64,000 bases of DNA from Rhynchopus sp. YZ270_cl-10 (lineage: Eukaryota), in assembly GCA_964035575.1 (NCBI GenBank), contig OZ037838.1, forward strand, positions 868,001 through 932,000. Reading direction: 5' to 3'. The position numbers and the translations under genes are program-made. Position 1 is the first letter of the stretch. Each line of letters starts with the position of its first letter. This document shows, piece by piece, positions 24,504 through 63,091 of this stretch. The notes beneath the pieces were generated by a model. That model worked only from the letters and a program-made list of their open reading frames with translations, was not told where the DNA came from and searched no databases.

Positions 24504-25631
24504 ATGATGGATGTGACCTTTGTGCTGGAAGAGTCAGGTGTGACTGCGACAGTGGAGGTGCCGTGCGAGGCGGACGTTGCAGCGGCAAAGGAGGTTGCGT
24601 GCACGGCGCTTGCTGTCTCGCCTGCGTCTGTCGAGATGCGCATCGGCACGCAGGTGCTGGAGGGGACGTGCCGTCTGCAGGACACTGCGTTTGATGCAGG
24701 GGTGCAGGTTGTGCTTGCCTGTCCTCGCTTTGCCGACATCAAGTGTCCTGCTGAGTATAGTGCAACTCATGTGGACAACTTGTCACTGTCGCGTTGTGGA
24801 ACGCTGTGCATATATTATAACAGGAGTGGGGATGTCGGTGTCTTCGACACAGAAACCTTCGACACTGTCTTCTCGTTCAAAGTGGACACTAAAGTGTCCG
24901 CTGCGCCTGCCATCTCGCAGTGCAAGACACGCTGCTACCTGCCGTGTGAGGATTGCCTTCTCGAGGTTGCGCTTCCGGGTGGGGAGGTGATCCGCAAAGT
25001 CGACGGCACCTCGGTTTCAGTACGAACGTGTGGCAGTGTTGTTGTCTCAAAGGGCAGAGACGGTGTCTCTGTGTATGACGAAGACCTGACGTTGCTCCGC
25101 TCTCTCTCGCATAAGCGGTGCAGGGACATGGCAGTGTCGGACTGTGGTGGGTGGGTGATCACCTCCTCCAGGAAGGAGAACAACGCACGTCTGTGGGATG
25201 TGAACACAGGTGTTACCGTGGCATGTGTGCCTGAGGACGGGTGGCAATGTCTCGTGGCGCTTTCACGGTCTGCCTCTGTCGTTGCTGTGGGGGGTCATAT
25301 GGGAAAGAGCGTGCACGTCTTTGATTGGAGTGGTGCGGCTCTTCGCAGTGTTGATGTGGGTGGGATTGTCGAGGGCATGCAGTTCACCCCGTGTGGGAAG
25401 TACTTTGTGGTGGCGGTAGGTGTAGAGGATTATAATGATGATGTCGAAGATTGTTTTGATTACGATGTACAGCTGCACCAGTATGATGTGGAGACCATGT
25501 CCTGTGTGCATGTGATACCGCTACTCTCTGGCGGGTCATTTGCGATATCACCGTGTTCACGTATTCTTGTGGTCATGCAAACAAATGGCGATATTGTGAC
25601 AAGGCATCTGTACCCACACAACAGTGAGTGA
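24504..25631 (+). CDS. UBL + beta-propeller family, copy 1 (375 aa)
   Basis: Ubiquitin-like ~70-aa N-terminus followed by seven WD40/YVTN-like blades (e.g. 'ARLWDVNTG'). Confidence 0.85.
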   Translation: MMDVTFVLEESGVTATVEVPCEADVAAAKEVACTALAVSPASVEMRIGTQVLEGTCRLQDTAFDAGVQVVLACPRFADIKCPAEYSATHVDNLSLSRCGTLCIYYNRSGDVGVFDTETFDTVFSFKVDTKVSAAPAISQCKTRCYLPCEDCLLEVALPGGEVIRKVDGTSVSVRTCGSVVVSKGRDGVSVYDEDLTLLRSLSHKRCRDMAVSDCGGWVITSSRKENNARLWDVNTGVTVACVPEDGWQCLVALSRSASVVAVGGHMGKSVHVFDWSGAALRSVDVGGIVEGMQFTPCGKYFVVAVGVEDYNDDVEDCFDYDVQLHQYDVETMSCVHVIPLLSGGSFAISPCSRILVVMQTNGDIVTRHLYPHNSE

Positions 25632-26307
25632 TGTGTGACCAGGGGAGGGGGAGGGTGGTGATGAATATACCCCAGGGACCCAGCAAAACAACCCAAGACC
25701 CTCAAAACACCCCCAAGAAACCCCTTTCAGCTTTCCCCCGAATGCGAAGAAGAATGCAAAGAAAACTCTTCGCACGCCATCTATGTCTAGGGGGATCAGC
25801 TGCGGGTCCACCCACGGTGTTCTGGTCACGCACCAAAAGGTACACTGCCAGGGCAAGGCATTGTGTTTCGAGTCACTTCTTTTTGCACTTTCTCTTCTTT
25901 TCGCCTGAGCTGGACGTTATGCACAGACGCTGCAACTTGCCAAACGCACAGCATCTGAGGTAGCTGCACTGCCTGACATCCTCATCCTGTTCCTTCTACA
26001 CCACTTAGCCAAACAACAACACGATCATGTCATCATGTATACTTTGGCCACAATCGTGTCAAAAAAATGTAAATCAATCCTCGACAACTCCAGGAAAGAA
26101 GCATTCCACACCACAATCTTTGGCAAACGACAACGACTGTATGTTTGCCGCAGGGTATCTTCAAATTGTTTGCTTTGTCAGACTTTTTTGTGAAACACGT
26201 ATTTACCCCACCAACCCGTAAACCCGCAAACCCGCAAACCTTCTTATTTGTCGTTGCGAAGTGACACCACCAACCATCACATCAAACACAACAGACCCCT
26301 TAACAAT

Positions 26308-27429
26308 ATGATGGATGTGACCTTTGTGCTGGAAGAGTCAGGTGTGACTGCGACAGTGGAGGTGCCGTGCGAGGCGGACGTTGCAGCGGCAAAGGAGGTT
26401 GCGTGCACGGCGCTTGCTGTCTCGCCTGCGTCTGTCGAGATGCGCATCGGCACGCAGGTGCTGGAGGGGACGTGCCGTCTGCAGGACACTGCGTTTGATG
26501 CAGGGGTGCAGGTTGTGCTTGCCTGTCCTCGCTTTGCTGACATCAAGTGTCCTGCTGAGTACAGTGTAGAGGTGCCACGTGCTGGGAAGGTGGTGGATAT
26601 GAGTCGCTTTTCGTTGTCTCCTTGTGGAGCACTCTGCCTCTTGATACAGAATGCGCGCTGCGTCACCGGCCTCGATACAGAAACCTTCAGCCCTGCCTTC
26701 AGTTTCAAAGTAGACATTGAGGTGTACAGTGCACCTGCCATCTCACGGTGCAAGACACGCTGCTACATGGCGCGTGGGGAAGGCCTTCTCGAGTTATCGC
26801 TTCCGGGTGGGGAGGTGCTCCGCAAAGTCGACGGCTCCTTGAATTCAGTGTTCGCGTGTGGTGGTGTTGTTGTCTCCCAAAGCACAGACGGCGTCTCTGT
26901 GTATGACGAAGACCTGACGTTGCTCCGCTCTATCTCCTTGCAGTGGTGCAGCAGTGTGGCAGTGTCGGACTGTGGTGGGTGGGTGATCACCTCCTCCTTC
27001 AGTGAGATGAGCGCACGTCTGTGAGATGTGAACACAGGTGAAGCTGTGGCATGTGTGCCTACGGATGGGAATCACGTGGCGCTTTCACGGTGTGCCTCTG
27101 TCTTTGCTGTGGGGTTCTATGATAAAGTGCAGCTCTACGACTGGAGTGGTGCGGCTCTTGGCAGCTTTGAAAAGGAGAAGTGTCACGTCGGTGTCGTGCA
27201 GTTCACTCCGTGTGGGAAGTACGTCGTTATTGGGTTTGGGAGCGGTGCACTATTTTGTGAAGAGTACACTCTACACCAGTATGATGTGGCGACCATGTCC
27301 TGTGTGCGTGTGATACAGGACACCAAAGGTGTATTTGCGATATCGCCGTGCTCACGTGTGGTTGTGTTCAAGGCAGGGGGTGATGCAGGAAGTAACGTCA
27401 TTGTCACAAGGCATCTGTACCCCTACTGA
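26308..27429 (+). pseudogene. UBL + propeller copy 2, premature TGA at 27022-27024 (Trp codon in paralogs)
   Basis: CGTCTGTGAGATGTG versus CGTCTGTGGGATGTG in paralogs; frame continues to RHLYPY*. Confidence 0.8.
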
Positions 27430-27720
27430 GCGATCCACCCTGTGTGGGAAGTACCTCCTCGCTGTCGCTGAGTACTGCGGTGTGTTGCTATCGTGTGTTG
27501 CATCAGTATTTGCGTTGCACCCTCGACCTACTAGCCTGTGAGGGAATTCATTTTAAGATGTCTTGAGGAAACTACCACACCACCCTTTACCTTTCTTTTT
27601 CACTTTTGCTTCGTTAAAACCCTCTCCTGCAGACACAACGAAAATGTACAAATACCCAAAACAAAACAACCCACACCTCATCTCCTCCTTACAGAGGTGG
27701 AACAAGAAGAAGACAAAACA

Positions 27721-28833
27721 ATGATGGATGTGACCTTTGTGCTGGAAGAGTCAGGCGTGACTGCGACAGTGGAGGTGCCGTGCGAGGCGGACGTTGCAGC
27801 GGCAAAGGAGGTTGCGTGCACGGCGCTTGCTGTCTCGCCTGCGTCTGTCGAGATGCGCATCGGCACGCAGGTGCTGGAGGGGACGTGCCGTCTGCAGGAC
27901 ACTGCGTTTGATGCAGGGGTGCAGGTTGTGCTTGCCCGCCGCTTTGCCGACATCAAGTGTCCTGCTCAGTACAAGGGACAGGAGCAAACAGCAAGGATGT
28001 CGCTGTCGCGTTGTGGAACTCTCTGCGTTTTTTCGGACTTGACTGGGGAGTTAGGTGGCTTCGACACAGAAACCTTCGACACTGTCTTCTCGTTAAAGGT
28101 GAACGTCACACTCGTTGCACCTGCCATCTCGCAGTGCAAGACACGCTTCTACCTGGCATGCAGGAAGCAAGGCCTTTTCGAGGTTGCGCTTCCGGGTGGG
28201 GAGGTGGTCCGCAAAGTAGACGGCACCTCAGACTCAGTGTCCGCCTGTGGCGGTGTTGTTGTCTCAAAGGGCACAGACGGCGTCTCTGTGTATGACGAAG
28301 ACCTGACGTTGCTCCGCTCTCTCTCGCACAAAGGGTGCAGGGATATGACAGTATCGGACTGTGGTGGGTGGGTGCTCACCGCCTCCTCAACAGAGTTGCA
28401 GGCACGTCTGTGGGATGTGAACACAGGTGAAGCTGTGGCAAGTGTGCCTTCGGGGTGGTTGCCTAGAGTGGCGCTTTCACGGTCTGCCTCTGTCTTTGCT
28501 GTGGGGGTGGTAAGCACCGTACAGCTCTATAATTGGAGTGGTGCGGCTCTTCGCAGTGTTGATGTGGGTGGGGGTGGGGGTCTCTGGGGCATGCAGTTCA
28601 CCCCGTGTGGGAAGTACCTTGTGGTGGGGGACTACGTCGAAGATGAAGACGACCGTTCTAGGTACCGTGTGCACCTGCAGCAGTATGATGTAGCGACCAT
28701 GTCCTGTGTGCGTGTGCTACCGCAAAACTCAGGTGTATCCTTTGCGATATCGCCGTGTTCACGCGTTGTTGTGGTTTTGCAATCAGATGGCGTCATTGTG
28801 ACAAAGCATCTGTACCCACACAACAGTGAGTGA
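27721..28833 (+). CDS. UBL + propeller copy 3
   Basis: Same architecture, MMDVTF start, HLYPHNSE* end. Confidence 0.85.
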   Translation: MMDVTFVLEESGVTATVEVPCEADVAAAKEVACTALAVSPASVEMRIGTQVLEGTCRLQDTAFDAGVQVVLARRFADIKCPAQYKGQEQTARMSLSRCGTLCVFSDLTGELGGFDTETFDTVFSLKVNVTLVAPAISQCKTRFYLACRKQGLFEVALPGGEVVRKVDGTSDSVSACGGVVVSKGTDGVSVYDEDLTLLRSLSHKGCRDMTVSDCGGWVLTASSTELQARLWDVNTGEAVASVPSGWLPRVALSRSASVFAVGVVSTVQLYNWSGAALRSVDVGGGGGLWGMQFTPCGKYLVVGDYVEDEDDRSRYRVHLQQYDVATMSCVRVLPQNSGVSFAISPCSRVVVVLQSDGVIVTKHLYPHNSE

Positions 28834-29157
28834 TGTGTGACCAGGGGAGGGGAGGGGATGGTGGTGATCAATATAACCCAGGGTACTAGCAAAAAAAACC
28901 CAAGACCCTCAAAACACCCCCAAGAAACCCCCCTTTCAGCCCTGTTGCTGCTTTTCTCTTGTTTGCTTGCCACAGGTCGCACACCTCACACGCTGCCCAT
29001 GTGGCGCTCTCGTGTGGGTGACAGATCCCGATGACGAGTGTTGTTTTCCATTCGTCACCTCTCACAACGAGAACCACGACAGATATGCAACACAGAACAA
29101 CACCTCTCCCCCACCCACCCACCTCGTGAGCAGTGGAGTAAAGAAGAAGAAACAATT

Positions 29158-30342
29158 ATGGATGTGACCTTTGTGCTGGAAGAGTCGGGCGTGACTGCGA
29201 CAGTGGAGGTGCCGTGCGAGGCGGACGTTGCAGCGGCAAAGGAGGTTGCGTGCACGGCGCTTGCTGTCTCGCCTGCGTCTGTCGAGATGCGCATCGGCAC
29301 GCAGGTGCTGGAGGGGACGTGCCGTCTGCAGGACACTGCGTTTGATGCAGGGGTGCAGGTTGTGCTTGCCCGCCCTCGCTTGACGGGCATCAAGTGCCCT
29401 GCTGAGTGCTATGTGCGGGAGGGAGTGCAACGCCGCGACTACTTATCACTGTCGCGTTGTGGAACTCTCTGCGTCTATAGTAGCAGGGATGGGCATGTTG
29501 GCGGCTTCGACACAGAAACCTTCGACACCGTCTTCTCGTTCGAAATGGACGCATTGGCTGCGCCTGCCATCTCACAGTGCAAGACACGCCTCTACTTGTC
29601 GTGTGGGGGAGACTTATACAAGGTTGCGCTTCCGGGTGGGGAGGTGCTCCGCAGAAGAAGAAAAAAGGTGGCAACTGGACCAGTCCAAAAATTTATCAAA
29701 AAAATGCTCCGCAAAGTCGACAGCATCTCAGAGTCAGTGTTCGCGTGTGGCAGTGTTGTTGTCTCAAAGGGCACAGACGGCGTCTCTGTGTATGACGAAG
29801 ACCTGACGTTGCTCCGCTCTCTCTCGCACGAAGGGTGCTGGGGTATGGCAGTGTCGCACTGTGGTGGGTGGGTGATCACCACCTCCGAGGAGCAGAACAA
29901 TGTACGTCTGTGGGATGTGAACACAGGTGTTGCTGTGGCATGTGTGCACCTGGGGTGGAACCGCGTTTTGTTCAGTAGAGAGGCGCTTTCACGGTCTGCC
30001 TCTATCTTTGCTGTGGCAGTCTCTCGCACCGTGGATCTCTATGATTGGAGTGGTGCGGCTCTTCGCAGTGTTGATGTGGGTGGGGATGGGAGTCTCTGGG
30101 GCATACAGTTCACCCCGTGTGGGGAGTACCTTGTGGTGCACGCGTTACATGACGGGGAAGGTTCTTGTTACGGTGCAAAACTGCACCAGTACGATGTGGC
30201 GACCATGTCCTGTGTGCATGTGATATCGCACGCCTATATTGAGTATTTTGATATATCGCCGTGTTCGCGTGTGGTTGTGTTTGCGTGTGACGAACAAAGC
30301 GGCATTGCAACAAGGCATCTGTACCCACACAACAGTGAGTGA
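29158..30342 (+). CDS. UBL + propeller copy 4 with 20-aa in-frame insertion
   Basis: Same architecture; insert at 29654-29704 flanked by TGCTCCGCA repeats. Confidence 0.82.
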   Translation: MDVTFVLEESGVTATVEVPCEADVAAAKEVACTALAVSPASVEMRIGTQVLEGTCRLQDTAFDAGVQVVLARPRLTGIKCPAECYVREGVQRRDYLSLSRCGTLCVYSSRDGHVGGFDTETFDTVFSFEMDALAAPAISQCKTRLYLSCGGDLYKVALPGGEVLRRRRKKVATGPVQKFIKKMLRKVDSISESVFACGSVVVSKGTDGVSVYDEDLTLLRSLSHEGCWGMAVSHCGGWVITTSEEQNNVRLWDVNTGVAVACVHLGWNRVLFSREALSRSASIFAVAVSRTVDLYDWSGAALRSVDVGGDGSLWGIQFTPCGEYLVVHALHDGEGSCYGAKLHQYDVATMSCVHVISHAYIEYFDISPCSRVVVFACDEQSGIATRHLYPHNSE

Positions 30343-30800
30343 TGTTTCGCGAGGGGTGGGAGGGTGGTGACTGTATTCTGACAGAAGGGGACAGTGCAAG
30401 TGTCTGCAGAGGGTATACCATCAACATAGTACGTCTTTTCATTCATACCACAAAGACTTTGTTGTTGTTGTGTTTTTGTTTCATCTTGGTATCGTTTACT
30501 GTTGACGTCCTGGGCTGGACCTTAAATTGCATCCGGGGGTCCGTTCCTCCAGAAACTCTATGAAGGTGTTGACCGCTCGAACCGATGCCTCCTACCTGAG
30601 AGATTACAAAACAGGAGGCGAGGAGGGGTATGCGGGGCGTTTTTGTGCCTTCAGGGTCTTTTTGTTTTTCAGCAACCCTGCCTCTCCTTTATCACCAGTG
30701 CATAGCCCCTGTCTTTTTGTTGGGGTATGCGGGACTTCCCCTAGTCCTCAGGGTCTAAACGCCCCTGCCCTCTTTTATGCAAGTTCACCCTGGCAGGGTA

Positions 30801-31411
30801 CCGTAACTGTAAATATGTTGGTCCGTAAAAATGTTGGGACAGCCCAAAAAGGCTTGCTCGTCCCAACATTATTACGGCCCAACATTTTTTGGGCCACTTT
30901 GGCTTGAGTCTATTTGTCTTAGCGTTTATTTTTTTTGATAAAACAACTTGTTGTCAATTCTAAAAAGATTGGAGGCAGCGCTGCAGGGCAAACAAAACGG
31001 ATTGAAAAAAAACAGAAGCTTGCTTGTTTTCTTTGAGTACTTAACCACAACAACCGTACTTCAGTTTAACACATTTTTTCACCTTTTTGTTTTCCCGGCT
31101 TTGAGCGCACAAACAAAAGACCCGATCTTTTTTGGGGGTGCGTTTTTTTTTGGGGGTCGGGCTACAGGGACGTTTTCCTCGATTTTTGGGGTGACGGGGT
31201 GGGGGAAAAAAAAGCTATAGTGGAGTTCATCTTCGGGTGTCTACACTAAAACAACCAAGTTTTCAAAAAAAGCTAAGACAAATCTTCCCCAACGAAAATC
31301 TACGTCAATATTCCCTAACTTAAATGTGTTGGACCGTGATAATGTTGGGACGGCAATTTTTTGCCCCAGCTGTCCCAACATTATTACGGCCCAACATATT
31401 TACAGTTACGG
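30801..31411. mobile_element. Tc1/mariner-type MITE (CCGTA termini, TA TSD) containing a nested R1 copy
   Basis: 43-bp TIR CCGTAACTGTAAATATGTTGG.CCGTAA.AATGTTGGGACAGC with 2 mismatches; TA at 30799-30800 and 31412-31413. Confidence 0.9.
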
Positions 31412-31819
31412 TATATAAATGCGGGTCAGGTGGCCCCCCTATGCTATGATGGGTGCTCGTACCCAGAGCATTAATGGTCAGCGGTCAGGCCGGAGTCGCT
31501 CTGCGGAGTCTCTCTGCCACGCCTTTGGGTTACGGTGTGCTGCCTGTAAGGACGTCCATGTATATCCCTAAGAGCAAGGGTGAGGCCCAACTGTCGGTAC
31601 AGCATGGGGCGCCAAGAGAGATGTTGTGACCCCCCTCGCCCACCCCTTTTTGTGTTTTTGGGTTTCTGCTCTCTTGTGTAGACTATCGTGCACCAACTGC
31701 AGTACCTGTAAGCTCACAACTCTTCAACGGAAGGTGGGCCGCCGGCTGACGAGCAGCCCTCGTCCTCTTACGGTACGGGTACGTCCGCTTAGGTTTCCTT
31801 TTTACATCTTCTGTTGTTG

Positions 31820-31880
31820 GCCGCAGGGTACTTTCATCCGGATGGCTGGCATCGTACAGTGGGTCAGTCGGAGGTGCCTG
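31820..31880 (+). repeat. Short hairpin repeat family R6 (GGCC(G/A)CAGGGTA..TCATCCGGATGGCTGGCATCGTAC.GTGGGTCAGTCGGAGGTGCCTG); copies ~40824-40895, 48879-48947
   Basis: Three near-identical copies, same strand. Confidence 0.8.
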
Positions 31881-32366
31881 TAGTAATAACTTCACTTTTA
31901 TTTATACCACACAAAAACTTTGTTGTTGTTGTGTTTTTTTTTTTTTGTTTTGTTTATCTTGGTATCGTTTACTGTTGACTCTTTGTTCGAGGATCCCCCA
32001 GTGAACCGTTTGTGACCTTGCTCTGCCTGGGCAGTCGTTAGCGTTGACGTTCGTCTGTAGCATACAAGAAAGAAGAAAGATCCCAGTCTCATTGGTGTTT
32101 GTTTTTCAAGAGTTTGTGTGTTCTGCTCTTGTGGGTTGCCGTTAAACGGAAACACAAACCTGCTGACAATCCTCCCCGTTCACACAACAGTACGGGCAAG
32201 CCACGAGGTTTCTTTTCACATCTCCTGTGTGTTTGCAGGGTATCTTCAAATTGCTTGTTTTGTCAGAGTTTGTTGAAACACGTATTCAACCCACCAACCT
32301 TCATGTTTGTCGTTGCGAAGTGACACCACCAACCATCACATCAAACACAACAGAGCCCTTAACAAT

Positions 32367-33473
32367 ATGATGGATGTGACCTTTGTGCTGGAAGAGTCAG
32401 GCGTGACTGCGACAGTGGAGGTGCCGTGCGAGGCGAAGGTTGCAGCGGCAAAGGAGGTTGCGTGCACGGCGCTTGCTGTCTCGCCTGCGTCTGTCGAGAT
32501 GCGCATCGGCACGCAGGTGCTGGAGGGGACGTGTCGTCTGCAGGACACTGCGTTTGATGCAGGGGTGCAGGTTGTGCTTGCCTGCCCTCGCTTTGCCGAC
32601 ATCAAGTGTCCTGCTGAGTACAATGCCCGTGTAGAAGGATTGTCGCTGTCGCGTTGTGGAACTCTCTGCGTCTACAGTAACAGGAGTGGGGATGTTGGCG
32701 GTTTCGACACAGAAACCTTCGACACTGTCTTCTCGTTTGAAGTGGACGGTGACGTGCGCGGTCGGCCTGCCATCTCGCAGTGCAAGACACGCTGCTACCT
32801 GGCGTGTGGGGATCACCTTCTCGAGGTTGCGCTTCCGGGTGGGGAGGTGGTCCGCAAAGTCGACGGCTCCTGGCGCTTAGTGTTCGCGTGTGGCGGTGTT
32901 GTTGTCTCCCAGGTCAGAGACGGCGTCTCTGTGTATGACGAAGACCTGACATTGCTCCGCACTCTCTCGCACGAAGGGTGCTGGCGTGCGTCGGTGTCGG
33001 ACTGTGGTGGGTGGGTGATCACCTCCTCCTGGGAGGAGAACGCGCGTCTGTGGGATGTGAACACAGGTGAAGCTGTGACATGTGTGCCTGCAGAGGGGTG
33101 GTGGTGTGGAGTGGCGCTTTCACGGTCTGCCTCTGTATTTGCAGTGGAGGGCTCTGGCAACGTGCAGCTCTATGATTGGAGTGGTGTGGCTCTTGGCACT
33201 ATTGATGTGGGTGGGGATGTAGAGGGAATGCAGTTCACCTTGTGTGGGAAGTACCTTGTGGTCAGGGTAGAGGGTGCGGGTTCTGATGATGACACAGATG
33301 ACGATCACAATACACCCCTGCACCAGTATGATGTGACGACCATGTCCTGTGTGCATGTGATACCGCAATGCTCAGGTGCATTTGCGATATCGCCGTGTTC
33401 ACGTGTTGTTGTGGTTTTGCAAACAAATGGCATTATTGTGACAAAGCATCTGTACCCACACAACAGTGAGTGA
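32367..33473 (+). CDS. UBL + propeller copy 5
   Basis: Same architecture. Confidence 0.85.
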   Translation: MMDVTFVLEESGVTATVEVPCEAKVAAAKEVACTALAVSPASVEMRIGTQVLEGTCRLQDTAFDAGVQVVLACPRFADIKCPAEYNARVEGLSLSRCGTLCVYSNRSGDVGGFDTETFDTVFSFEVDGDVRGRPAISQCKTRCYLACGDHLLEVALPGGEVVRKVDGSWRLVFACGGVVVSQVRDGVSVYDEDLTLLRTLSHEGCWRASVSDCGGWVITSSWEENARLWDVNTGEAVTCVPAEGWWCGVALSRSASVFAVEGSGNVQLYDWSGVALGTIDVGGDVEGMQFTLCGKYLVVRVEGAGSDDDTDDDHNTPLHQYDVTTMSCVHVIPQCSGAFAISPCSRVVVVLQTNGIIVTKHLYPHNSE

Positions 33474-33664
33474 TGTGTGACCAGGGGAGGGGAGGCTGGT
33501 GAGCAATATAACCCAGGGTCCCAACAAAAAAAACCCAAGACCCCCAAAACACCCCCAAGAGACTCCCCTTCTAGCCATGTTGCAGGAACACGTACTCAAC
33601 CTTCTTATTTGTTGCAAGTGACACCACCAACCATCACATCAAACACAACACACCCCTTAACAAT

Positions 33665-35179
33665 ATGATGGATGTGACCTTTGTGCTGGAAGAGTCAGGC
33701 GTGACTGCGACAGTGGAGGTGCCGTGCGAGGCGGACGTTGCAGCGGCAAAGGAGGTTGCGTGCACGGCGCTTGCTGTCTCGCCTGCGTCTGTCGAGATGC
33801 GCATCGGCACGCAGGTGCTGGAGGGGACGTGCCGTCTGCAGGACACTGCGTTTGATGCAGGGGTGCAGGTTGTGCTTGCCTGTCCTCGCTTTGCCGACAT
33901 CAAGTGTCCTGCTGAGTGCAGTACCCGGGTGTATGTGAATTACTTGTTGCTGTCGCGTTGTGGAACGCTCTGTGTTTTTTCGAACTTGACTGGGCATGTT
34001 GGTGGATTTGACACAGAAACCTTCGACACTGTCTTCGCATTTGCTGAGGGCAGTGACGTTGTGTTCTATCCTTTTGCCCTGTCGCAGTGCAAGACACGCT
34101 GCTACGTGCCGTGTGAGGATTACCTTCTCGAGCTTGCACTTCCGGGTGGGGAGGTGGTCCGCAAGGTCGACGGCACCTCGAGAGCAGTGTCCGCGTGTGG
34201 TAGTGTTGTTGTCTCGTTTTGTGAAGACGGTGTCTCTGTGTATGACGAAGACCTGACGTTGCTCCGCTCTCTCTCACACAAGGGGTGCGACCAGGGGTAC
34301 GGGAACTTGGCAGTCTCGCACTGTGGTGGGTGGGTGGTCACCGGCTCCTTCAGCGAGAACAACGCACGTCTGTGGGATGTGAACACAGGTGTTGTTCTGG
34401 CATGTGTGCCTGCGGAGGGGCGGTCCAAGGTAGCTCTCTCACGGTCTGCCTCTGTCTTTGCTGTGGGGGGTAATATGGACGATCCAAAGAGCGTGCAGCT
34501 CTACGACTGGAGTGGTACGGCACTTCAGAACGCCAGTATCTCTGGAGATGTCTGTGGCGTGCAATTCACCCAGTGTGGGAAGTACTTGGTGGTCAATGTG
34601 CATGCTGACGAAGGTGAAGTACATGAAAAGCTGCACCAGTACGAAGTGGCGACCATGACCTGTGTACTTGTGATCCCAGACGTCAACGGTCGGTCATTTG
34701 CGATATCACCGTGTTCGCGTGCGGTTGTGTTTGTATCATCCAAAAGCGACTTCGTCCCGAATGAACAGGGCTATTGCTCCAGTCCAATTTCGAAACCGGG
34801 TAGTACATTTTCCCTGTACATGGTACACGGGGGAAAAATTAGACCCCCCCAAAAAAAAAAACTCTTTGCCGTTTGCATTACCACTGCAAACGAAGTGCGA
34901 TCGGGTTTTGGGGCGGCAGGCATTGCACCGTCAGTTGCAATCGTCGGACTGATGGGGCTTGAGACGGTCCTTGTGGCCCCCTCGGTGTGCGCGAACAGTA
35001 CCTTTCATTGTGGGCGCGCGGACAATTTGTCACCGAGGGCTCAGGATTGGATGTCTGAATCAGGAGATGCTGATTACACACACCTGGTACCCAAGACTTG
35101 GTACGCCGACGCTGCTAGCAACGCGCACGCATCATTTGTGAACATTTCTCTCAGTGTCCTGCTGACCGATGAACGGTGA
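33665..35179 (+). CDS. UBL + propeller copy 6 with aberrant, extended C-terminus (family similarity ends near 34760)
   Basis: Lacks the TRHLYPHNSE end and reads through into unrelated sequence. Confidence 0.65.
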   Translation: MMDVTFVLEESGVTATVEVPCEADVAAAKEVACTALAVSPASVEMRIGTQVLEGTCRLQDTAFDAGVQVVLACPRFADIKCPAECSTRVYVNYLLLSRCGTLCVFSNLTGHVGGFDTETFDTVFAFAEGSDVVFYPFALSQCKTRCYVPCEDYLLELALPGGEVVRKVDGTSRAVSACGSVVVSFCEDGVSVYDEDLTLLRSLSHKGCDQGYGNLAVSHCGGWVVTGSFSENNARLWDVNTGVVLACVPAEGRSKVALSRSASVFAVGGNMDDPKSVQLYDWSGTALQNASISGDVCGVQFTQCGKYLVVNVHADEGEVHEKLHQYEVATMTCVLVIPDVNGRSFAISPCSRAVVFVSSKSDFVPNEQGYCSSPISKPGSTFSLYMVHGGKIRPPQKKKLFAVCITTANEVRSGFGAAGIAPSVAIVGLMGLETVLVAPSVCANSTFHCGRADNLSPRAQDWMSESGDADYTHLVPKTWYADAASNAHASFVNISLSVLLTDER

Positions 35180-42229: not shown

Positions 42230-42269
<40 letters not shown>

Positions 42270-42277
42270 GCATTATT

Positions 42278-54669: not shown

Positions 54670-55812
54670 ATGATGGATGTGACCTTTGTGCTGGAAGAGT
54701 CAGGCGTGACTGCGACAGTGGAGGTGCCGTGCGAGGCGGACGTTGCAGCGGCAAAGGAGGTTGCGTGCACGGCGCTTGCTGTCTCGCCTGCGTCTGTCGA
54801 GATGCGCATCGGCACGCAGGTGCTGGAGGGGACGTGCCGTCTGCAGGACACTGCGTTTGATGCAGGGGTGCAGGTTGTGCTTTCCCGCCGATTTGCCGAC
54901 ATCAAGTGTCCTGCTGAGTACACTGCAACGCACATGGGGGAGTTGTTACTGTCGCGTTTTGGAGCGCTCTGCATCTATGGTGACTGGAGTGGGCATGTTG
55001 GCGGTTTCGACACGGAAACCTTCGACACTCTCTTCTGGTTCGAAGTGGACACGAACGCGAACACGGCTCCGCCTGCCATCTCGCAGTGCGAGACACGCTG
55101 CTACCTGCCGTGTGGGGATCACCTTCTCGAGGTTGCGCTTCCGGGTGGGGAGGCGCTCCGCAAAGTCGACGGCATCGCAGAGTCAGTGTTCGCGTGTGGC
55201 AGTGTTGTTGTCTCCCAGGGCACAGACGGCGTCTCTGTGTATGACGAAGACCTGACGTTGCTCCGCTCTCTCTCGCACGAAGAGTGTATGGGAGCGGCAG
55301 TGTCGGACTGTGGTGGGTGGGTGATCACTTCCTCAGTAGGGGACGACGCGCGTCTGTGGGATGTGAACACAGGTGAAGTGGTGGCATGTGTGCCTACAGG
55401 TTGGTGGAGTCGTAGGCGGTGTGGAGTGGCTCTTTCACGGTCTGCCTCTGTCTTTGCTGTGGAGGGGGTGGGAGGCACCGTGCACCTCTATGATTGGAGT
55501 GGTGAGTTTCTTTGCAGTGTTGATGTGGATGGGGATGTCGAGAGCATGCAGTTCACCCCGTGTGGGAAGTACCTTGTGGTCAAGGTGGATGCCAGTTATG
55601 AAGATGAAATAGGCTACTCAATTCCCTGGGTACACCTACGCCAGTATGATGTGGCGACCATGTCTTGTGTACGTTTTATACCGCAAACCTTTGCTGGGTC
55701 ATTTGCGATATCACCGTGTTCACGTGTGGTTGTGTTCGGGTGTGAGAACGAAAGCATCGATGCAACAAGCAGCATTGTAACAAGGCATCTGTACCCACAC
55801 AACAGTGAGTGA
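54670..55812 (+). CDS. UBL + propeller copy 7
   Basis: Same architecture. Confidence 0.85.
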   Translation: MMDVTFVLEESGVTATVEVPCEADVAAAKEVACTALAVSPASVEMRIGTQVLEGTCRLQDTAFDAGVQVVLSRRFADIKCPAEYTATHMGELLLSRFGALCIYGDWSGHVGGFDTETFDTLFWFEVDTNANTAPPAISQCETRCYLPCGDHLLEVALPGGEALRKVDGIAESVFACGSVVVSQGTDGVSVYDEDLTLLRSLSHEECMGAAVSDCGGWVITSSVGDDARLWDVNTGEVVACVPTGWWSRRRCGVALSRSASVFAVEGVGGTVHLYDWSGEFLCSVDVDGDVESMQFTPCGKYLVVKVDASYEDEIGYSIPWVHLRQYDVATMSCVRFIPQTFAGSFAISPCSRVVVFGCENESIDATSSIVTRHLYPHNSE

Positions 55813-55975
55813 TGTTTTCTTTTTCACATCTCCTGTGTGTTTGCAGGGTATCTTCAAATTGCTTGCTTTTATCAGAGTTTGTTGAAACACGCATTTAACC
55901 CACCAACCTTCTTATTTGTCGTTGCGAAGTGACACCACCAACCATCACATCAAACACAACAGACCCCTTAACAAT

Positions 55976-57052
55976 ATGATGGATGTGACCTTTGTGCTGG
56001 AAGAGTCAGGCGTGACTGCGACAGTGGAGGTGCCGTGCGAGGCGGACGTTGCAGCGGCAAAGGAGGTTGCGTGCACGGCGCTTGCTGTCTCGCCTGCGTC
56101 TGTCGAGATGCGCATCGGCACGCAGGTGCTGGAGGGGACGTGCCGTCTGCAGGACACTGCGTTTGGTGCAGGGGTGCAGGTTGTGCTTGCCCGCCGCTTT
56201 GCTGACATCAAGTGTCCTGCTGAGCACACTACGACGTATGTGGGAGGCTTGTCACTGTCGCGATGTGGCACGCTCTGCGTCTATGGTGATAGAATGAGTA
56301 AGCATGTTAGTGGCTTTGACACAGAAACCTTCGACACGTGCTGCTCTTTTGAAGTGGACACTAAAGTGGTCGGTCCGCCTGCCCTCTCGCAGTGCAAGAC
56401 ACGCTGCTACATGCCATGTAGGAACTACGTTCTTGAGGTTGCGCTTCCAGGTGGGGAGGTGGTCCGCAAAGTACCAGACGTCATTCCACAGTCAGTGTTC
56501 GCGTGTGGTGGTGTTGTTGTCTCGAAGGGCGAAGACGGCGTCTCTGTGTATGACGAAGACCTGACGTTGCTCCGCTCTCTCGCACACGAAACGTGTTGGA
56601 GCGTGGCAGTGTCGGACTGTGGTGGGTGGGTGATCACCTCCTCCTTGAATGAGAACAACGCACGTCTGTGGGATGTGAACACAGGTGTTGCTGTGGCATG
56701 TGTGCCTGCGGGGGCGTGGTGTTGCGTGGCGCTTTCACGGTCTGCCTCTGTCTTTGCTGTGGGGATGCACAACACCGTGCAGCTCTATGATTGGAGTGGT
56801 GCGGCTTTTCGCAGTGTTGATGTGGGTAAGGATATCAAGGGCATGCAGTTCACCCCGTGTGGGAAGTACCTTGTGGTAAAGATTATAGACGTGCTGCACC
56901 AGTATGATGTGGCGACCATGTCCTGTGTGCGTGTGATGCCGCAAAGGTTTGTTGTGTCCTTTGCGATATCGCCGTGTTCACGTGTTGCTGTGGTTATGCA
57001 AAAAGATAGCGTCATTGTAACAAGACATCTTTACCCACACAACAGTGAGTGA
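55976..57052 (+). CDS. UBL + propeller copy 8
   Basis: Same architecture. Confidence 0.85.
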   Translation: MMDVTFVLEESGVTATVEVPCEADVAAAKEVACTALAVSPASVEMRIGTQVLEGTCRLQDTAFGAGVQVVLARRFADIKCPAEHTTTYVGGLSLSRCGTLCVYGDRMSKHVSGFDTETFDTCCSFEVDTKVVGPPALSQCKTRCYMPCRNYVLEVALPGGEVVRKVPDVIPQSVFACGGVVVSKGEDGVSVYDEDLTLLRSLAHETCWSVAVSDCGGWVITSSLNENNARLWDVNTGVAVACVPAGAWCCVALSRSASVFAVGMHNTVQLYDWSGAAFRSVDVGKDIKGMQFTPCGKYLVVKIIDVLHQYDVATMSCVRVMPQRFVVSFAISPCSRVAVVMQKDSVIVTRHLYPHNSE

Positions 57053-57548
57053 TGTCCGACCAGGCAGGGGAGGGAGAGGCGGTGATCAATATACGCCAGG
57101 GTCCGAGCAAAAAACCCAGACCTCAAAACACCCCCAAGAAACTCCCCTTTCAGCCCTGTTGCTGTTTTTCTCTTGTTTGCCTGACACAGGTCGCCCACCT
57201 CACACGCTGCGGCGCTCTCGTGTGGGTGACAGATCACCATGCTTAGTGTCATTCCTTTCGTAACGTCACAACGAGAAGCACCACAAACGTGCGATAACGC
57301 TTGTGCTCAAGGTGATGAAGTACGAGCGGCTTAGGTTCATCTTATAACTTTTCGTTCCTCTTTTTCTCTGCAATGCTTGTGGAAAAGATCTTCAGGTTCA
57401 GATGTATTCGTGTTTGTTACTATTGTTTTGTGTCGACGCCATGAGACCCTTCAGACCCTCACTGTCCGTTCATATTATTCTCTACCTCAGAAATTACACC
57501 CCTAAATGACACCAACCATCACATCACACCAACACAGCTCTTGAAACA

Positions 57549-58664
57549 ATGATGGATGTGACCTTTGTGCTGGAAGAGTCAGGTGTGACTGCGACAGTGG
57601 AGGTGCCGTGCGAGGCGGACGTTGCAGCGGCAAAGGAGGTTGCGTGCACGGCGCTTGCTGTCTCGCCTGCGTCTGTCGAGATGCGCATCGGCACGCAGGT
57701 GCTGGAGGGGACGTGCCGTCTGCAGGACACTGCGTTTGATGCAGGGGTGCAGGTTGTGCTTGCCTGCCCTCGCTTTGCCGACATCAAGTGTCCTGCGTAC
57801 TGTGCGCAGGGGGTCGCGTCGCTGGGTGATTTGTCGCTGTCCCGTTGTGGCGCGCTGTGTCTCTATCGGCATGACGAGTATGTTGGTGCTTTCAACACAG
57901 AAACCTTTGACACTCTCTTCTCGTTCCGTGTGGGCCTCATGTTTGGTCCACCAGCCATCTCACGGTGCAAGACACGCTGCTACCTGGCGTGTGGGGGTCA
58001 CCTTCTCGAGGTTGCGCTTCCGGGTGGGGAGGTGCTCCGCAAAGTCGACGGCGCCTCGTACTCGGTGTCCGCGTGTGGCGGTGTTGTTGTCTCCAAGAGC
58101 GTCAAAGACGGCGTCTCTGTGTATGACGAAGACCTGACGTTGCTCCGCTTTCTCTCGCACGAAGGGTGTAATGGAGCGGCAGTATCGCGCTGTGGTGGAT
58201 GGGTGATCACCTCCTCCTACCGTGAGAAGAACGTACGTCTGTGGGATGTGAACACAGGAGTTGCTGTGGCATGTGTGCCCGCGAATGGGTGGGGCGTGGC
58301 GCTTTCACGGTCTGCCTCTGTCTTTGCTGTGGGGGGCTGTGTGGATGAGGCAGCGAGTGTGCAGCTCTACGACTGGAGTGGTGCGGCTCTTCAGAACGCC
58401 ACTATCTCTGGACGTGTAGTTGGCGTTCAATTCACCCTGTGTGGGAAGTACCTTGTGGTCCATGTACAAAAGCGCGCTGACGATAGTCACCTACAGAACG
58501 CAGAGCTGCAACAGTATGATGTGATGACTATGTCCCGTGTGCTGGTCATTCCATACGTCAAGGGTACGTCATTTGCGATATCACCGTGTTCACGTGTGGT
58601 TGTGTTGCTATTATCCACAAATAACAGCGTTGTGACCATACATCTGCACCCCCACAACGAGTGA
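57549..58664 (+). CDS. UBL + propeller copy 9
   Basis: Same architecture. Confidence 0.85.
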   Translation: MMDVTFVLEESGVTATVEVPCEADVAAAKEVACTALAVSPASVEMRIGTQVLEGTCRLQDTAFDAGVQVVLACPRFADIKCPAYCAQGVASLGDLSLSRCGALCLYRHDEYVGAFNTETFDTLFSFRVGLMFGPPAISRCKTRCYLACGGHLLEVALPGGEVLRKVDGASYSVSACGGVVVSKSVKDGVSVYDEDLTLLRFLSHEGCNGAAVSRCGGWVITSSYREKNVRLWDVNTGVAVACVPANGWGVALSRSASVFAVGGCVDEAASVQLYDWSGAALQNATISGRVVGVQFTLCGKYLVVHVQKRADDSHLQNAELQQYDVMTMSRVLVIPYVKGTSFAISPCSRVVVLLLSTNNSVVTIHLHPHNE

Positions 58665-59084
58665 TGTTTATGCTTTAGTACCATGTGAAATGGGTGTGAT
58701 GACTTGCCCCCTTGTATTCCGTGGAGGCGGAAGAACTGGTGTCGTCAACAGAAGCCTGCGTCTTGCCACCACACACCTATCCAGTGATGGCAGATCTGCA
58801 TCCACGAGCAAGACACCGCAGACCACCTTGTCGCAGCCGAACACCACATCGCCTCCCGCCAGGCCGCCCTCGTCGCCCTCCACACAGAGATGTGCGCCAT
58901 GGTGAGACCTATTCATGTGCGCACCACCATTTGTTTTTTTCCTGTACCGCAGAGCCTTTACCCTAACTTAAAACAACGACCCTCAGCCCCAGCCCTTCTT
59001 TCCACGTGTCCACCCTCTCAGCTCCTTCAACTGTCCACCCAACAGAACATTCAATTGCAGCACACCAACACAGCTCTTGAAACA

Positions 59085-60209
59085 ATGATGGATGTGACCT
59101 TTGTGCTGGAAGAGTCAGGCGTGACTGCGACAGTGGAGGTGCCGTGCGAGGCGGACGTTGCAGCGGCAAAGGAGGTTGCGTGCACGGCGCTTGCTGTCTC
59201 GCCTGCGTCTGTCGAGATGCGCATCGGCACGCAGGTGCTGGAGGGGACGTGCCGTCTGCAGGACACTGCGTTTGATGCAGGGGTGCAGGTTGTGCTTGCC
59301 CGCCCTCGCTTTGCTGACATCAAGTGTCCTGCTGAGTACAAGTCAAAGATGTCATCGAGCTACCTGCTGTTATCGCTGTCGCGTTGTGGAGCGCTGTGCA
59401 TCGTTAGTGATCGTGGAAATGTTGTTGGCTTCGACACAGAAACCTTCGACACGGTCTTCTCGTTCAAAGTGGACAATGATGTTCGCGGTCGGCCTGCCAT
59501 CTCGCAGTGCAAGACACGCTGCTACCTGCCGTGTTGGAGTAAAGGCCTTCTCGAGCTTGCGCTTCCGGGTGGGGAGGTGCTCCGCAAAGTCGACGGCACC
59601 TCCAACGCAGTGTTCGCGTGTGGCGGTGTTGTTATCTCAAAGGGCACAGACGGCGTCTCTGTGCATGACGAAGACCTGACGTTGCTCCGCTCTCTCTCAC
59701 ACGAAGAGTGCAGGCGTGTGGCAGTGTCGGACTGTGGTGGGTGGGTGATCACTCACTCCGAGAAGGAGTGGAACGCACGTCTGTGGGATGTGAACACAGG
59801 TGAAGTTGTGGCATGTGTGCCGCTGGAGGAAGTGTTATGTGGAGTGATGGCACTTTCAAGATCTGCTTCTGTCTTTGCTGTGGTGAGCTGTGGCAGCGTA
59901 CAGCTCTATAACTGGAGTGGTGCGGCTCTGAGCAGCATTGATGTGGTTGAGGATGTAGAGGGAATGCAGTTCACCTTGTGTGGGAAGTACCTTGTGGTAA
60001 GGACATTTGATGTGGAATACGGCGACAGCGATATTATATGCATCAACAACCTGCACCAGTATGATGTGGCGACCAGGTCCTGTGTGCGTGTGATACCGCA
60101 AGAGTCAAATGAGTCCTTTGTGATATCGCCGTGTTCACGTGTTGTCATGGTTATGCAATCAAATGGCGTCGTTGTGACGAGGCATCTGTACCCACACAAC
60201 AGTGAGTGA
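59085..60209 (+). CDS. UBL + propeller copy 10
   Basis: Same architecture. Confidence 0.85.
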   Translation: MMDVTFVLEESGVTATVEVPCEADVAAAKEVACTALAVSPASVEMRIGTQVLEGTCRLQDTAFDAGVQVVLARPRFADIKCPAEYKSKMSSSYLLLSLSRCGALCIVSDRGNVVGFDTETFDTVFSFKVDNDVRGRPAISQCKTRCYLPCWSKGLLELALPGGEVLRKVDGTSNAVFACGGVVISKGTDGVSVHDEDLTLLRSLSHEECRRVAVSDCGGWVITHSEKEWNARLWDVNTGEVVACVPLEEVLCGVMALSRSASVFAVVSCGSVQLYNWSGAALSSIDVVEDVEGMQFTLCGKYLVVRTFDVEYGDSDIICINNLHQYDVATRSCVRVIPQESNESFVISPCSRVVMVMQSNGVVVTRHLYPHNSE

Positions 60210-60608
60210 TGTGTGACCAGGGGAGGGGAGGGGAGGGTGGTGATGAATATAGCTCAGGGTACCAGCAAAACAAAGCCAAGACGCACAAAAAAAAAATAAT
60301 CTCCCGTCTGTTGCACACAAGAAAGAAGAAAGACTCCAGGTCTCATTGGCGTTTGTTTCTCAAGAGTTTGTGTGTTGTTCTGTTCTTGTGGGTTGTGGAC
60401 CTTCCCCCTTCACACCACAGTACGGGCAAGCCATGAGGTTTCTTTTCACATCTCCTGTGTGTTTGCCGCAGGGTATCTGCAAATTGCTTGCTTTGTCAGA
60501 GTTTGTTGAAACAAGCATTCAACCCACCAACCTTCTTATTTGTCGTTGCGAAGTGACACCAGTGGGTCCACCAACCATCACATCAAACACAACAGACCCC
60601 TTAACAAT

Positions 60609-61730
60609 ATGATGGATGTGACCTTTGTGCTGGAAGAGTCGGGCGTGACTGCGACAGTGGAGGTGCCGTGCGAGGCGGACGTTGCAGCGGCAAAGGAGGT
60701 TGCGTGCACGGCGCTTGCTGTCTCGCCTGCGTCTGTCGAGATGCGCATCGGCACGCAGGTGCTGGAGGGGACGTGCCGTCTGCAGGACACTGCGTTTCGT
60801 GCAGGGGTGCAGGTTGTGCTTGCCCGCCGCTTTGCCGACATCAAGTGTCCTGCTCAGTACACTGCAAAGTCGCAAGCGACAACGTTCGCGCTGTCGCGTT
60901 GTGGAACGCTCTGCGTACATAGTTACGAGACTGGTCATGTTGGCGGTTTCGACACAGAAACCTTCGACACTGTCTTCTCGTTCAGAGTGGACAATAAAGT
61001 ATCCGGTGCGCCTGCCATCTCGCAGTGCAAGACACGCTGCTACGTGCCGTGTGGGGATCACCTTCTCGAGGTTGCGCTTCCGGGTGGGGAGGTGATCCGC
61101 AAAGTCGACGGCTACTCAGACGCAGTGTTCTCCTCTGGCGGTGTTATTGTTTCCCAAGGCATAAACCAAGCCAAAAAAGATGGCGTCTCTGTGTATGACG
61201 AAGGCCTGAGGTTGCTCCGCACTCTCTCGCACAAGCAGTGCAGTGGGGTGGCAGTATCGCACTGTGGTGGGTGGGTGATCACCTCCTCCTGGGAGCAGAA
61301 CGTACGTCTGTGGGATGTGAATACAGGCGAAGCTGTGGCGTGTGTGCCATTGGAGGGGTACGGGAGCTTACAAGTAGCACTTTCGCAATGTGCCTCTGTA
61401 TTTGCTGTGGCGAGCTGTGGCACCGTGAGCCGCGTGCACCTCTATGATTGGAGTGGTGCGGCTCTTCGCAGTGTTGATATGGATAAGGCTGTAGCGGGAA
61501 TGCAGTTCACCCCGTGTGGGAAGTACCTTGTGGTGGGGGTGGTAATTTTTGATTATTATAGGTTTGAAACGCTGCACCAGTTTGATGTGTCGAACATGTC
61601 CTGTGTGAATGTGATATCGTATAGCGCAGATGCGCCCTTTGCGATATCGCCGTGTTCACGCGTTGTTGTGACTATGCCAAATCCTGGCTACATTGCGACG
61701 AGACATCTGTACCCACACAACAGTGAGTGA
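60609..61730 (+). CDS. UBL + propeller copy 11
   Basis: Same architecture. Confidence 0.85.
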   Translation: MMDVTFVLEESGVTATVEVPCEADVAAAKEVACTALAVSPASVEMRIGTQVLEGTCRLQDTAFRAGVQVVLARRFADIKCPAQYTAKSQATTFALSRCGTLCVHSYETGHVGGFDTETFDTVFSFRVDNKVSGAPAISQCKTRCYVPCGDHLLEVALPGGEVIRKVDGYSDAVFSSGGVIVSQGINQAKKDGVSVYDEGLRLLRTLSHKQCSGVAVSHCGGWVITSSWEQNVRLWDVNTGEAVACVPLEGYGSLQVALSQCASVFAVASCGTVSRVHLYDWSGAALRSVDMDKAVAGMQFTPCGKYLVVGVVIFDYYRFETLHQFDVSNMSCVNVISYSADAPFAISPCSRVVVTMPNPGYIATRHLYPHNSE

Positions 61731-62078
61731 TGTTTGGCCAAGGGAGGGGAGGGAAAGTAGTGATGCATTTGACCCTTTTCTCTTGTTTGCCTGCCACAGG
61801 TTGCCGGGTGTCAGGTCGCCCACCTCACACGTGGGTTCGTTGTGGGTCGGAAACACAAACCTGACACCGAGCAGTTGTGTCCCTTCCCCCTTCACCCCAC
61901 AGTACGGGCAAGCCATGAGGTTTCTTTTCACATCTCCTGTGTATTTGCAGGGTATCTTCAAATTGCTTGTTTTGTCAGAGTTTGTTGAAACACGCATTTA
62001 ACCCACCAACCTTCTTATTTGTCGTTGCGAAGTGACACCACCAACCATCATATCAAACACAACAGACCCCTTAACAAT

Positions 62079-63091
62079 ATGATGGATGTGACCTTTGTGC
62101 TGGAAGAGTCAGGCGTGACTGCGACAGTGGAGGTGCCGTGCGAGGCGGACGTTGCAGCGGCAAAGGAGGTTGCGTGCACGGCGCTTGCTGTCTCGCCTGC
62201 GTCTGTCGAGATGCGCATCGGCACGCAGGTGCTGGAGGGGACGTGCCGTCTGCAGGACACTGCGTTTGACCCAGGGGTGCAGGTTGTGCTGGCCTGCCCT
62301 CGCTTTGCCGACATCAAGTGTCCTGCTCAGTACAGTGTAGAGGCGCCAACTGGTGGGCAGGAGAGGACTATCAAGCGTTTTTCGCTGTCTCCTTGTGGAG
62401 CACTCTGCCTCTTTGCACAGAATGCAGGCTACGTCACTGGCCTCGATACAGAAACCCTCAGCCCTGCCTTCAGGTTCAAAGTAGACATTGTGGTGTACGG
62501 TGTGCCTGCCATCTCACGGTGCAAGACACGCTGCTACCTGGCGTGCAGGGAAGGTATGCACGAGGTTGCGCTTCCGGGTGGGGAGGTGCTGACCTGACGT
62601 TGCTCCGCTCTCTTTCGCACGAAGGGTGCAGGCGTGTGGCTGTGTCGCACTGTGGTGGGTGGGTGATCACCTTCTCACGCAGTGATAAGAAGGCACGTCT
62701 GTGGGATGTGAACACAGGTGAAGAAGTGGCATGTGTGCTGATCGGAGGGGAACACCACGAAGTAGCACTTTCACGGTCGGCCTCTGTCTTTGCTGTGGGG
62801 GTAGTAAACCGCGTGCGCCTCTTTGATTGGAGTGGTGCGGCTCTTGGCAGCATTGATGTGGATGGCAATATCGAGCACATGCAGTTCACCCCGTGTGGGA
62901 AGTACATTGTACTCAATGTGTTGAGTGTCACGCATGGTTTGGAGCTGCACCAGTATGATGTTGCGACCCTTTCCTGTGTGCGTGTATTCACGGAAATAGG
63001 ACGTAACAGGTTTGTGATATCGCCCTGTTCGCGTATAGTTGTGTTTCCATCCGAAGGCCGCCTTCTGACACGCCACCTGTACCCAGAATAG
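62079..63091 (+). pseudogene. UBL + propeller copy 12, frameshifted by a ~91-nt deletion at 62590/62591
   Basis: GGAGGTGCT joins directly to GACCTGACG; the blade-3 segment present in paralogs is missing; the 3' part continues in another frame to RHLYPE*. Confidence 0.82.

Follow-up and report, generated by a model that had tools for sequence, protein, structure and literature searches.

A 64,000-nucleotide stretch of the Rhynchopus sp. YZ270_cl-10 genome (contig OZ037838.1, positions 868,001 to 932,000 of the forward strand; hereafter, the window) carries 12 tandem copies of a gene whose product joins a near-constant N-terminal domain, predicted to have the ubiquitin fold (ubiquitin-like domain, UBL), to a predicted seven-bladed WD40-type propeller that varies on one face. 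It is very probable that these proteins are variable binders with a common handle. That they form an inherited repertoire of cytosolic adaptor-receptors, probably for foreign ligands and with a single UBL partner, is slightly better than an even bet. Taken singly, a foreign origin of the ligands is somewhat favoured, while an output through the ubiquitin system is evenly balanced.

An initial annotation, made from the letters of the DNA, had described 12 copies in two clusters. Six-frame translation and tblastn searches of the window recovered exactly 12, all on the + strand, with six copies at 24507-35179 and six at 54673-63091 (Table 1). All are intronless (one exon) and arranged in tandem. 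Nine of the 12 are intact and encode 357-394 amino acids, a length for which the UBL and the propeller fully account; the other three (26311, 33668 and 62082) are damaged. The five loop sequences quoted in the annotation as following the KCPA motif were found exactly in the translations. The framework blocks described there as shared by all 12 copies hold as consensus motifs, not as literal strings (KCPA in 12/12, FDTETF in 9/12 and SLSRCG in 7/12).

Of 7997 candidates scored in a search of a protein collection with copy 1, 414 matched at E<=1e-3. The best 120 of the 414, which match copy 1 at 68-100% identity along 99-100% of its length, make up the protein set used below; as the closest matches to copy 1, they include some of the window copies. 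Eighty-two of these 120 lie on one 2,712,987-nt contig, equal in length to that of the window, 29 on a 456,684-nt contig and nine on six others. Their propellers are on average 68% identical (56-89%) and exceed 85% identity in only 5 of 7140 pairs, so the members are not alleles. The collection merges sequences more than 90% alike, and the family size taken from it, at least 120 members, is a lower bound.

A predicted propeller with one variable face and a predicted ubiquitin-like handle

The propeller proposed in the initial annotation was supported by structure prediction. In an AlphaFold model based on the 120-sequence alignment, residues 83-367 form seven four-stranded blades with a velcro closure, mostly at a predicted local distance difference test score (pLDDT) above 90, and Foldseek matched this region to WD40 proteins at E 1e-16, with ODA16, G-beta and LIS1 at the top. 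The Pfam WD40 repeat profile (PF00400) remained below its gathering score in 8/8 window copies scanned (13-22 bits against a cut-off of 27), which one distant paralogue, P0157, passed (31.6 bits).

Two variable patches per blade, both on one face, had also been claimed, and the pattern was borne out over the 120 proteins, in the D-A and B-C loops only. We took the strands from the AlphaFold model, placing strand 2A by hand at 134-136, and assigned the faces by strand order and the WD40 convention that D-A and B-C loops form the top, as given in an excerpt of PMC1805685, not from coordinates. All 14 D-A and B-C (top) loops vary, with a mean entropy of 2.43 bits (1.5-3.2 per loop), whereas all 13 A-B and C-D (bottom) loops are conserved, with a mean of 0.27 bits (0.05-1.0 per loop; Mann-Whitney p 8e-21). 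The bottom loops have their modal length in 96-100% of the proteins, and the top loops take 3-24 different lengths, the maximum of 24 being reached at 6B-6C. Even within strands, the halves toward the top are more variable than the others (1.58 vs 0.48 bits). Assembly of the loops from shuffled cassettes was rejected, as 6553 of 7135 protein pairs have no loop in common and each loop occurs in 76-113 distinct sequences; all 120 loop combinations are unique, and the loops are private to each gene. Compared with random codons, the hypervariable sites are enriched in Tyr (5.3 vs 2.2%) and Asp (9.0 vs 3.9%), as well as in His and Asn, and depleted in Arg, Leu and Ile. The mean net charge of the top loops is -7.7.

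Among the window copies, the sole large insertion outside the top loops lies in copy 4 (residues ~164-183). It is in frame, 20 amino acids long and rich in Arg and Lys, resembling the pattern of a nuclear localisation signal. Copies 2 and 12 are both broken and come from different clusters. They represent one divergent subtype, marked by a longer first loop and the sequence SLSPCGALCL, which suggests that this subtype is in decay.

The N-terminal region was expected to have a beta-grasp fold, and the prediction agrees. A UBL model built from a 13-sequence alignment of diverse N-termini (pLDDT 84) has the beta-beta-alpha-beta-beta-beta topology of the ubiquitin fold and superposes on ubiquitin with a VIA Z of 12.6 and a root-mean-square deviation of 1.6 over 75 aligned residues. 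Ubiquitin, ISG15 and the Dsk2 UBL are its best structural matches (VIA Z 12.2-12.6), in agreement with Foldseek (TM ~0.8), and a profile search matched ubiquitin-like proteins at E 2e-5. Pfam ubiquitin gave a sub-threshold match on 3/6 distant paralogues. Searches with a single UBL sequence yielded nothing, with a best E of 0.96 in PDB and of 0.81 in the Atlas, the latter a lead only. In the full-length model, most of residues 1-72 have a pLDDT below 50, because the N-terminal part of the 120-sequence alignment is invariant.

The surface of this domain differs from that of ubiquitin. In the register of the profile alignment, Leu8, Ile44 and Val70 of ubiquitin correspond to Glu9, Arg45 and Ala71, which are kept in 119/120, 120/120 and 119/120 proteins, respectively. 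A proteasome-binding UBL of the Rad23/Dsk2 type was rejected for lack of this hydrophobic patch; its loss also makes direct docking to a canonical proteasome receptor unlikely. Docking to the proteasome or to ubiquitin-system partners had been noted in the initial annotation as frequent among UBL domains. A conjugatable modifier or ubiquitin fusion was likewise rejected, since the fold is followed not by diglycine but by A-[CR]-P-R-F or A-R-R-F. With 11 Asp/Glu against 3 Lys/Arg, the domain is acidic; its Cys32 is invariant in 13/13 UBL-bearing rows of the diverse alignment. The proteins are likely cytosolic, as had been proposed: neither a signal peptide nor a membrane helix is apparent, the acidic UBL itself forms the N-terminus, and 19-residue hydropathy exceeds 1.8 in only 2 of the 120 proteins.

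Probable homogenisation of the framework and selection at some loop sites

Over the first 70 codons of the window copies, 0.9% of bases differ. This uniformity extends to silent positions. Divergence at 4-fold sites is 0.015 in the UBL codons, against 0.14 in bottom loops, 0.22 in strands and 0.29 in top loops, and this silent constancy makes it likely, from the sequence comparison, that gene conversion homogenises the handle and the framework. With rising distance from a hypervariable codon, the 4-fold divergence of conserved codons falls from 0.36 through 0.23, 0.16 and 0.13 to 0.015 (the last for more than 14 codons). Trees of different segments rejected each other in 10/12 cross-segment tests, although such tests favour their own tree by construction and bootstraps were low. 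Certain types of flanking sequence are common to both clusters, yet the flanks diverge right up to the ATG. The silent-site gradient, the tree rejections and the flanks common to the clusters would fit the prediction of conversion opposed by selection on the loops. An identity-tract test (15/45 pairs at p<0.05; 1 after correction) was discounted, as its permutation ignores rate heterogeneity.

The handle had been called invariant. It is near-constant, but since its constancy extends to silent sites, it is probably, at least in part, a product of gene conversion. Between subfamilies, sequence comparison nonetheless indicates constraint on the UBL at the protein level: among 12 diverged paralogues that have a full UBL, 11 are more similar to copy 1 in the UBL than in the propeller framework (e.g. 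83 vs 52% and 66 vs 48% identity). We also considered whether part of the N-terminal constancy was created during assembly, with polishing having collapsed near-identical 210-nt segments to one consensus. The very low silent divergence of the UBL would be expected in that case, but the first 70 residues occur as 52 distinct strings among the 120 proteins, 44 of them singletons, the divergence of the flanks reaches the ATG, the silent-site gradient goes on inside the propeller, and the UBL is also the best-kept part of the diverged subfamilies. Such an artefact is highly improbable. The recurrently variable UBL positions are only codons 23 (D/K/N) and 63-64 (D/G/E/C and A/S), several of which need two base changes.

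Selection was assessed on 10/12 window copies, leaving out 26311 and 62082 and trimming 33668. By counting, the ratio of nonsynonymous to synonymous differences (pN/pS) is 1.13 in top loops (95% 0.93-1.37), which is indistinguishable from 1, and 0.34 in bottom loops; a value of 1.27 at sites picked by entropy was set aside as circular. The single-rate site test recommended in the initial annotation proved strongly inflated. In simulations of a null with neutral, unconverted loops and a converted framework, its likelihood-ratio test (LRT) statistic reached 15 under weak and 124 under strong conversion, and the single-rate M1a/M2a LRT of 67 obtained from the real data (172 columns) was therefore set aside. 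Dual-rate models behaved differently, with a null LRT of at most 5.8 in 26/26 runs, whereas the real data, analysed on an identical star tree, gave 39.5. With three synonymous-rate classes, the LRT was 29.8 on 244 gap-free codons and 17.6 when columns near gaps were dropped (172 codons). Adding multi-hit changes to these classes gave an LRT of 20.2 (p 4e-5), with a nonsynonymous-to-synonymous rate ratio (omega) of 5.3 on 16% of 244 codons. Of the 13 sites whose posterior exceeds 0.8, eight fall in top loops. Positive selection thus acts on a subset of top-face sites, and much of the loop variation may be neutral; the excess of amino acid change anticipated in the loops appears as a site class with omega above 1 in the dual-rate models and not in the loop-wide count.

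A neutral or selfish expansion would account for part of this pattern: the array would have grown by unequal crossing-over, the framework would be held by folding and conversion, and the loops would drift. The loop-wide pN/pS, the damage to three of 12 copies and the power of conversion alone to raise single-rate tests to 124 are all compatible with it. It does not predict the dual-rate statistic, the many in-frame indels that loops carry within intact frames, the departure of loop composition from random codons, or an architecture kept in paralogues at 25% identity, and we regard it as unlikely.

Family breadth, proposed function and genomic surroundings

A profile search of 1.84 billion representatives revealed further subfamilies with propellers at 42-62% identity, as well as full-length paralogues at ~25%. 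Seven of the latter (P0157, P0160, P0175, P0189, P0227, P0260 and P0274) make up an older UBL-propeller layer, with the helix AC motif and the S-x-C-G turns (partly in P0274). On this sequence evidence, the large family represents a single branch of that layer which has expanded. Searching with the distant paralogues gave 10 matches, with P0274 as the single new family member. None of the best 150 representatives carries the constant UBL on another architecture, UBL-only matches being truncated family members. We found no description of a matching family in those parts of the open-licence literature that were available. The main text of the Diplonema papillatum genome paper, in the portion available, does not mention ubiquitin, WD40 or propellers (PMC10161547). 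The largest WD-annotated orthogroup found in the same source has 10-27 members per diplonemid, and unannotated orthogroups could hide the family (PMC10161547).

Relatives were also sought in JGI metagenome contigs (121 pattern matches, 0 confirmed) and in IMG/VR (15 pattern matches, 0 confirmed). These results bear on the possibility that the proteins are effectors directed at cells of prey or a host, exported with no signal peptide and hijacking the target's ubiquitin system through the UBL, as is thought for adaptor-WD40 proteins of giant viruses. BTB-WD40 and F-box propeller proteins with a comparable fold do occur in giant viruses (9-15% identity, in fold only), and positive selection would fit an arms race seen from either side. 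We rejected these viral fold matches as relatives of the family, as they are generic propellers. Besides the lack of confirmed relatives in either collection, there is no export signal, and one would expect the Ile44 patch to be retained in a handle that addresses foreign ubiquitin machinery. A role as effectors is very unlikely.

In the mechanism we propose for a receptor repertoire, each propeller would bind its own ligand through the top face, the most likely ligands being proteins of invaders such as viruses or endosymbionts; the acidic, Tyr/Asp/His/Asn-rich surface may prefer basic peptides or surfaces. The near-constant UBL would dock every member on one host partner, probably ubiquitin or AAA-ATPase machinery, through a non-canonical surface that may comprise the invariant Cys32 helix, Glu9 and Arg45. 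With such a surface, the partner would more probably be an E2/E3 module or an AAA-ATPase adaptor than Rpn10 or Rpn13. Bound targets may then be degraded, extracted or signalled. Each gene would diversify its loops separately, by substitutions and in-frame indels, and gene conversion would keep the handle and the framework uniform, with the loops protected by selection. As a candidate source of ligands, diplonemids host Holosporineae endosymbionts, in which, according to the available part of the source, a type VI secretion system is widely conserved (PMC11909080); by analogy, Holosporineae would be a plausible source.

The same biochemistry could instead serve endogenous targets, with the proteins acting as substrate adaptors or self/non-self determinants in the recognition of kin or mates, in restraining selfish elements or in turnover of the cell's own proteins. 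The structural and selection results fit this equally well; the best precedent, het-d/het-e, acts in allorecognition according to the accessible text of PMC1805685, and the defence idea for F-box and MATH-BTB families is itself termed indirect in an excerpt of PMC1866355. Slowly evolving self ligands would, on the other hand, hardly drive more than 120 private, selected specificities in one genome. We consider endogenous targets rather unlikely.

Several observations weigh against a selected, ubiquitin-linked repertoire for foreign ligands. The family is not tied to any pathogen. A-B and C-D turns are structurally conserved across WD40 proteins generally, so some top-face bias is expected even without selection. 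The codon-position pattern of the loops (0.48/0.47/0.42) is near that of neutral simulations, and the loop-wide pN/pS has the neutral value within its interval. The likelihood tests relied on custom code applied to 10 paralogues with recombination, with one form of null simulated, and the segment-tree tests have their built-in bias. Three of 12 window copies are damaged. With both the Ile44 patch and the C-terminal diglycine missing, the fold is the sole link to the ubiquitin system. A full picture of an antibody-like intracellular immune repertoire in a single-celled euglenozoan is put forward tentatively: hundreds of germline WD40 binders with private, selected top faces may share one non-canonical UBL handle to a common destruction or signalling machine, with conversion keeping handle and scaffold uniform, in a class without NLR, F-box or BTB.

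Little is settled about how free-living protists detect viruses and bacteria inside their cells, and the family offers a direct handle on that question. Its one constant domain should make the partner fishable with a single bait, and its more than 100 natural binders lend themselves to ligand screening. The family is also a natural library of WD40 positions that tolerate variation and a clear case of gene conversion inflating single-rate tests of positive selection.

The identifiable genes of the window all lie on the + strand in single long frames (Table 1). One of them (20576-22663, +) encodes an XPB/ERCC3-like helicase without the N-terminal PF13625 of typical XPB, which its closest, diplonemid-like relatives also do not have. 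It is 64% identical to a Diplonema papillatum protein, 62-63% to two transcriptome proteins, 70% to one ENA protein and 39-45% to those of other eukaryotes; of the named relatives, that of D. papillatum is the best, and the host would on these grounds probably be a diplonemid of another species. The AT-richer spacers contain two families of short dispersed repeats, 70-100 nt long and 84-94% alike.

Table 1. Gene copies, flanking blocks, neighbouring genes and repeats in the window (positions counted from its first nucleotide; aa, amino acids; ORF, open reading frame)
Feature	Position	Strand	Remarks
Copy 1	24507..25631	+	Intact, 374 aa; UBL 1-72, linker, seven-bladed propeller 83-368 (tblastn, AlphaFold)
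Copy 1, extra ATG	24504	+	Directly upstream of the copy 1 start
Copy 1, UBL codons 1-70	24507..24716	+	DNA near-identical across 12/12 copies
Copy 2	26311..27429	+	Damaged; premature stop at codon 238, ORF end 27024
Copy 3	27724..28833	+	Intact, 369 aa
Copy 4	29158..30342	+	Intact, 394 aa; 20-residue basic insertion at strand 2D
Copy 5	32370..33473	+	Intact, 367 aa
Copy 6	33668..35179	+	Damaged; homology ends ~34756, the 3' remainder of the 503 aa ORF being unrelated; without the last propeller strand
Copy 7	54673..55812	+	Intact, 379 aa
Copy 8	55979..57052	+	Intact, 357 aa; short 6B-6C loop
Copy 9	57552..58664	+	Intact, 370 aa
Copy 10	59088..60209	+	Intact, 373 aa
Copy 11	60612..61730	+	Intact, 372 aa
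Copy 12	62082..63091	+	Damaged; ~30-codon internal deletion and frameshift near 62590; tblastn pieces 1-162, 193-370
Upstream block, one of several flank types	24147..24506	+	88% over 378 nt to 58710-59087 in the other cluster
Second upstream flank type	32173..32369	+	Common to copies 2, 5, 6, 8, 11 and 12 (76-97%), both clusters
1010-aa ORF	898-3930	+	No Pfam match
RibD C-terminal domain protein	16053-16913	+	Pfam
Gemin2/SIP1	18766-19485	+	Pfam
203-aa ORF	38205-38816	+	No Pfam match; hydrophobic, signal-peptide-like start
Ion-transport (channel) protein	51943-53250	+	Pfam
Dispersed repeat family one	9758-9836, 39358-39445, 40346-40438, 47247-47336, 48645-48730
Dispersed repeat family two	31803-31899, 40805-40902, 48860-48965
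10-nt tandem arrays	9979-10093, 12716-13437
Perfect (ACTGT)15 array	1-75		Window start

Comparison with known systems

The closest parallel in the pattern of variation is the fungal HNWD family (Podospora het-d and het-e), in which, according to an excerpt of the source, the WD40 D-A loop and B-C turn are positively selected, the rest is in concerted evolution and pseudogenes are present (PMC1805685). The family described here likewise shows selection at D-A and B-C positions and a framework that evolves in concert, and has damaged copies. It differs in having no NACHT or HET (no Pfam match to NACHT), the effector end being a UBL, and in its size, with at least 120 members against ~10 HNWD genes. 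The blades of a single gene do not form near-identical repeats, and the exchange unit here is therefore not the blade. The HNWD pattern of a selected top face on a homogenised framework would thus have been reached independently, with a different effector.

A constant N-terminal handle followed by a variable binding domain is also found in the F-box as well as the MATH-BTB expansions of nematodes and plants, which form birth-death clusters and for which the available text hypothesises pathogen defence (PMC1866355). Unlike in those families, the handle here has a predicted ubiquitin fold and is homogenised at silent sites. No Pfam F-box or BTB domain was matched in 18 proteins. Membership among the DCAF adaptors of CRL4 was rejected, as the sole WD reads WDVN in intact copies and does not fit WDxR, which we take to be the DCAF motif.

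The domain order, an N-terminal UBL and then WD40 blades, is that of Ytm1/WDR12 (seven blades) and Rsa4/NLE1 (eight blades), as described in a portion of PMC4737154. There, the UBL is the handle for an AAA-ATPase (the Rea1 MIDAS) and the propeller grips the client (PMC4737154), which shows that a UBL-WD40 protein is able to work as client grip and machine handle. Those proteins are, however, conserved ribosome-assembly factors, and the best UBL matches here are ubiquitin, ISG15 and Dsk2. There was no NLE Pfam match, nor an NLE-type UBL among the top 50 VIA matches. Residues 63-65 read D/G-A/S-G, and no conserved Glu was seen before the last UBL strand, judged without a direct alignment to Ytm1 or Rsa4.

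UBL shuttles and adaptors (Rad23, Dsk2, Ddi2, BAG6 and midnolin) share an integral N-terminal UBL without diglycine and are structural matches at Z 10.5-12.2. The present proteins differ in the Glu/Arg/Ala at the Ile44-patch positions and in having no UBA, and we know of no hypervariable multigene family among such shuttles or adaptors. Antibodies and the variable lymphocyte receptors of lampreys present, on a constant scaffold, one face of Tyr/Asp/Asn/Ser-rich loops that vary in sequence and length. In contrast to these, the genes here are complete in the germline, with no sign of somatic assembly or common cassettes, and their products are likely cytosolic, in a single-celled host. With membership established in none of these systems, the family would by analogy work like the HNWD proteins and the F-box/BTB adaptors, in the domain order of Ytm1 and Rsa4.

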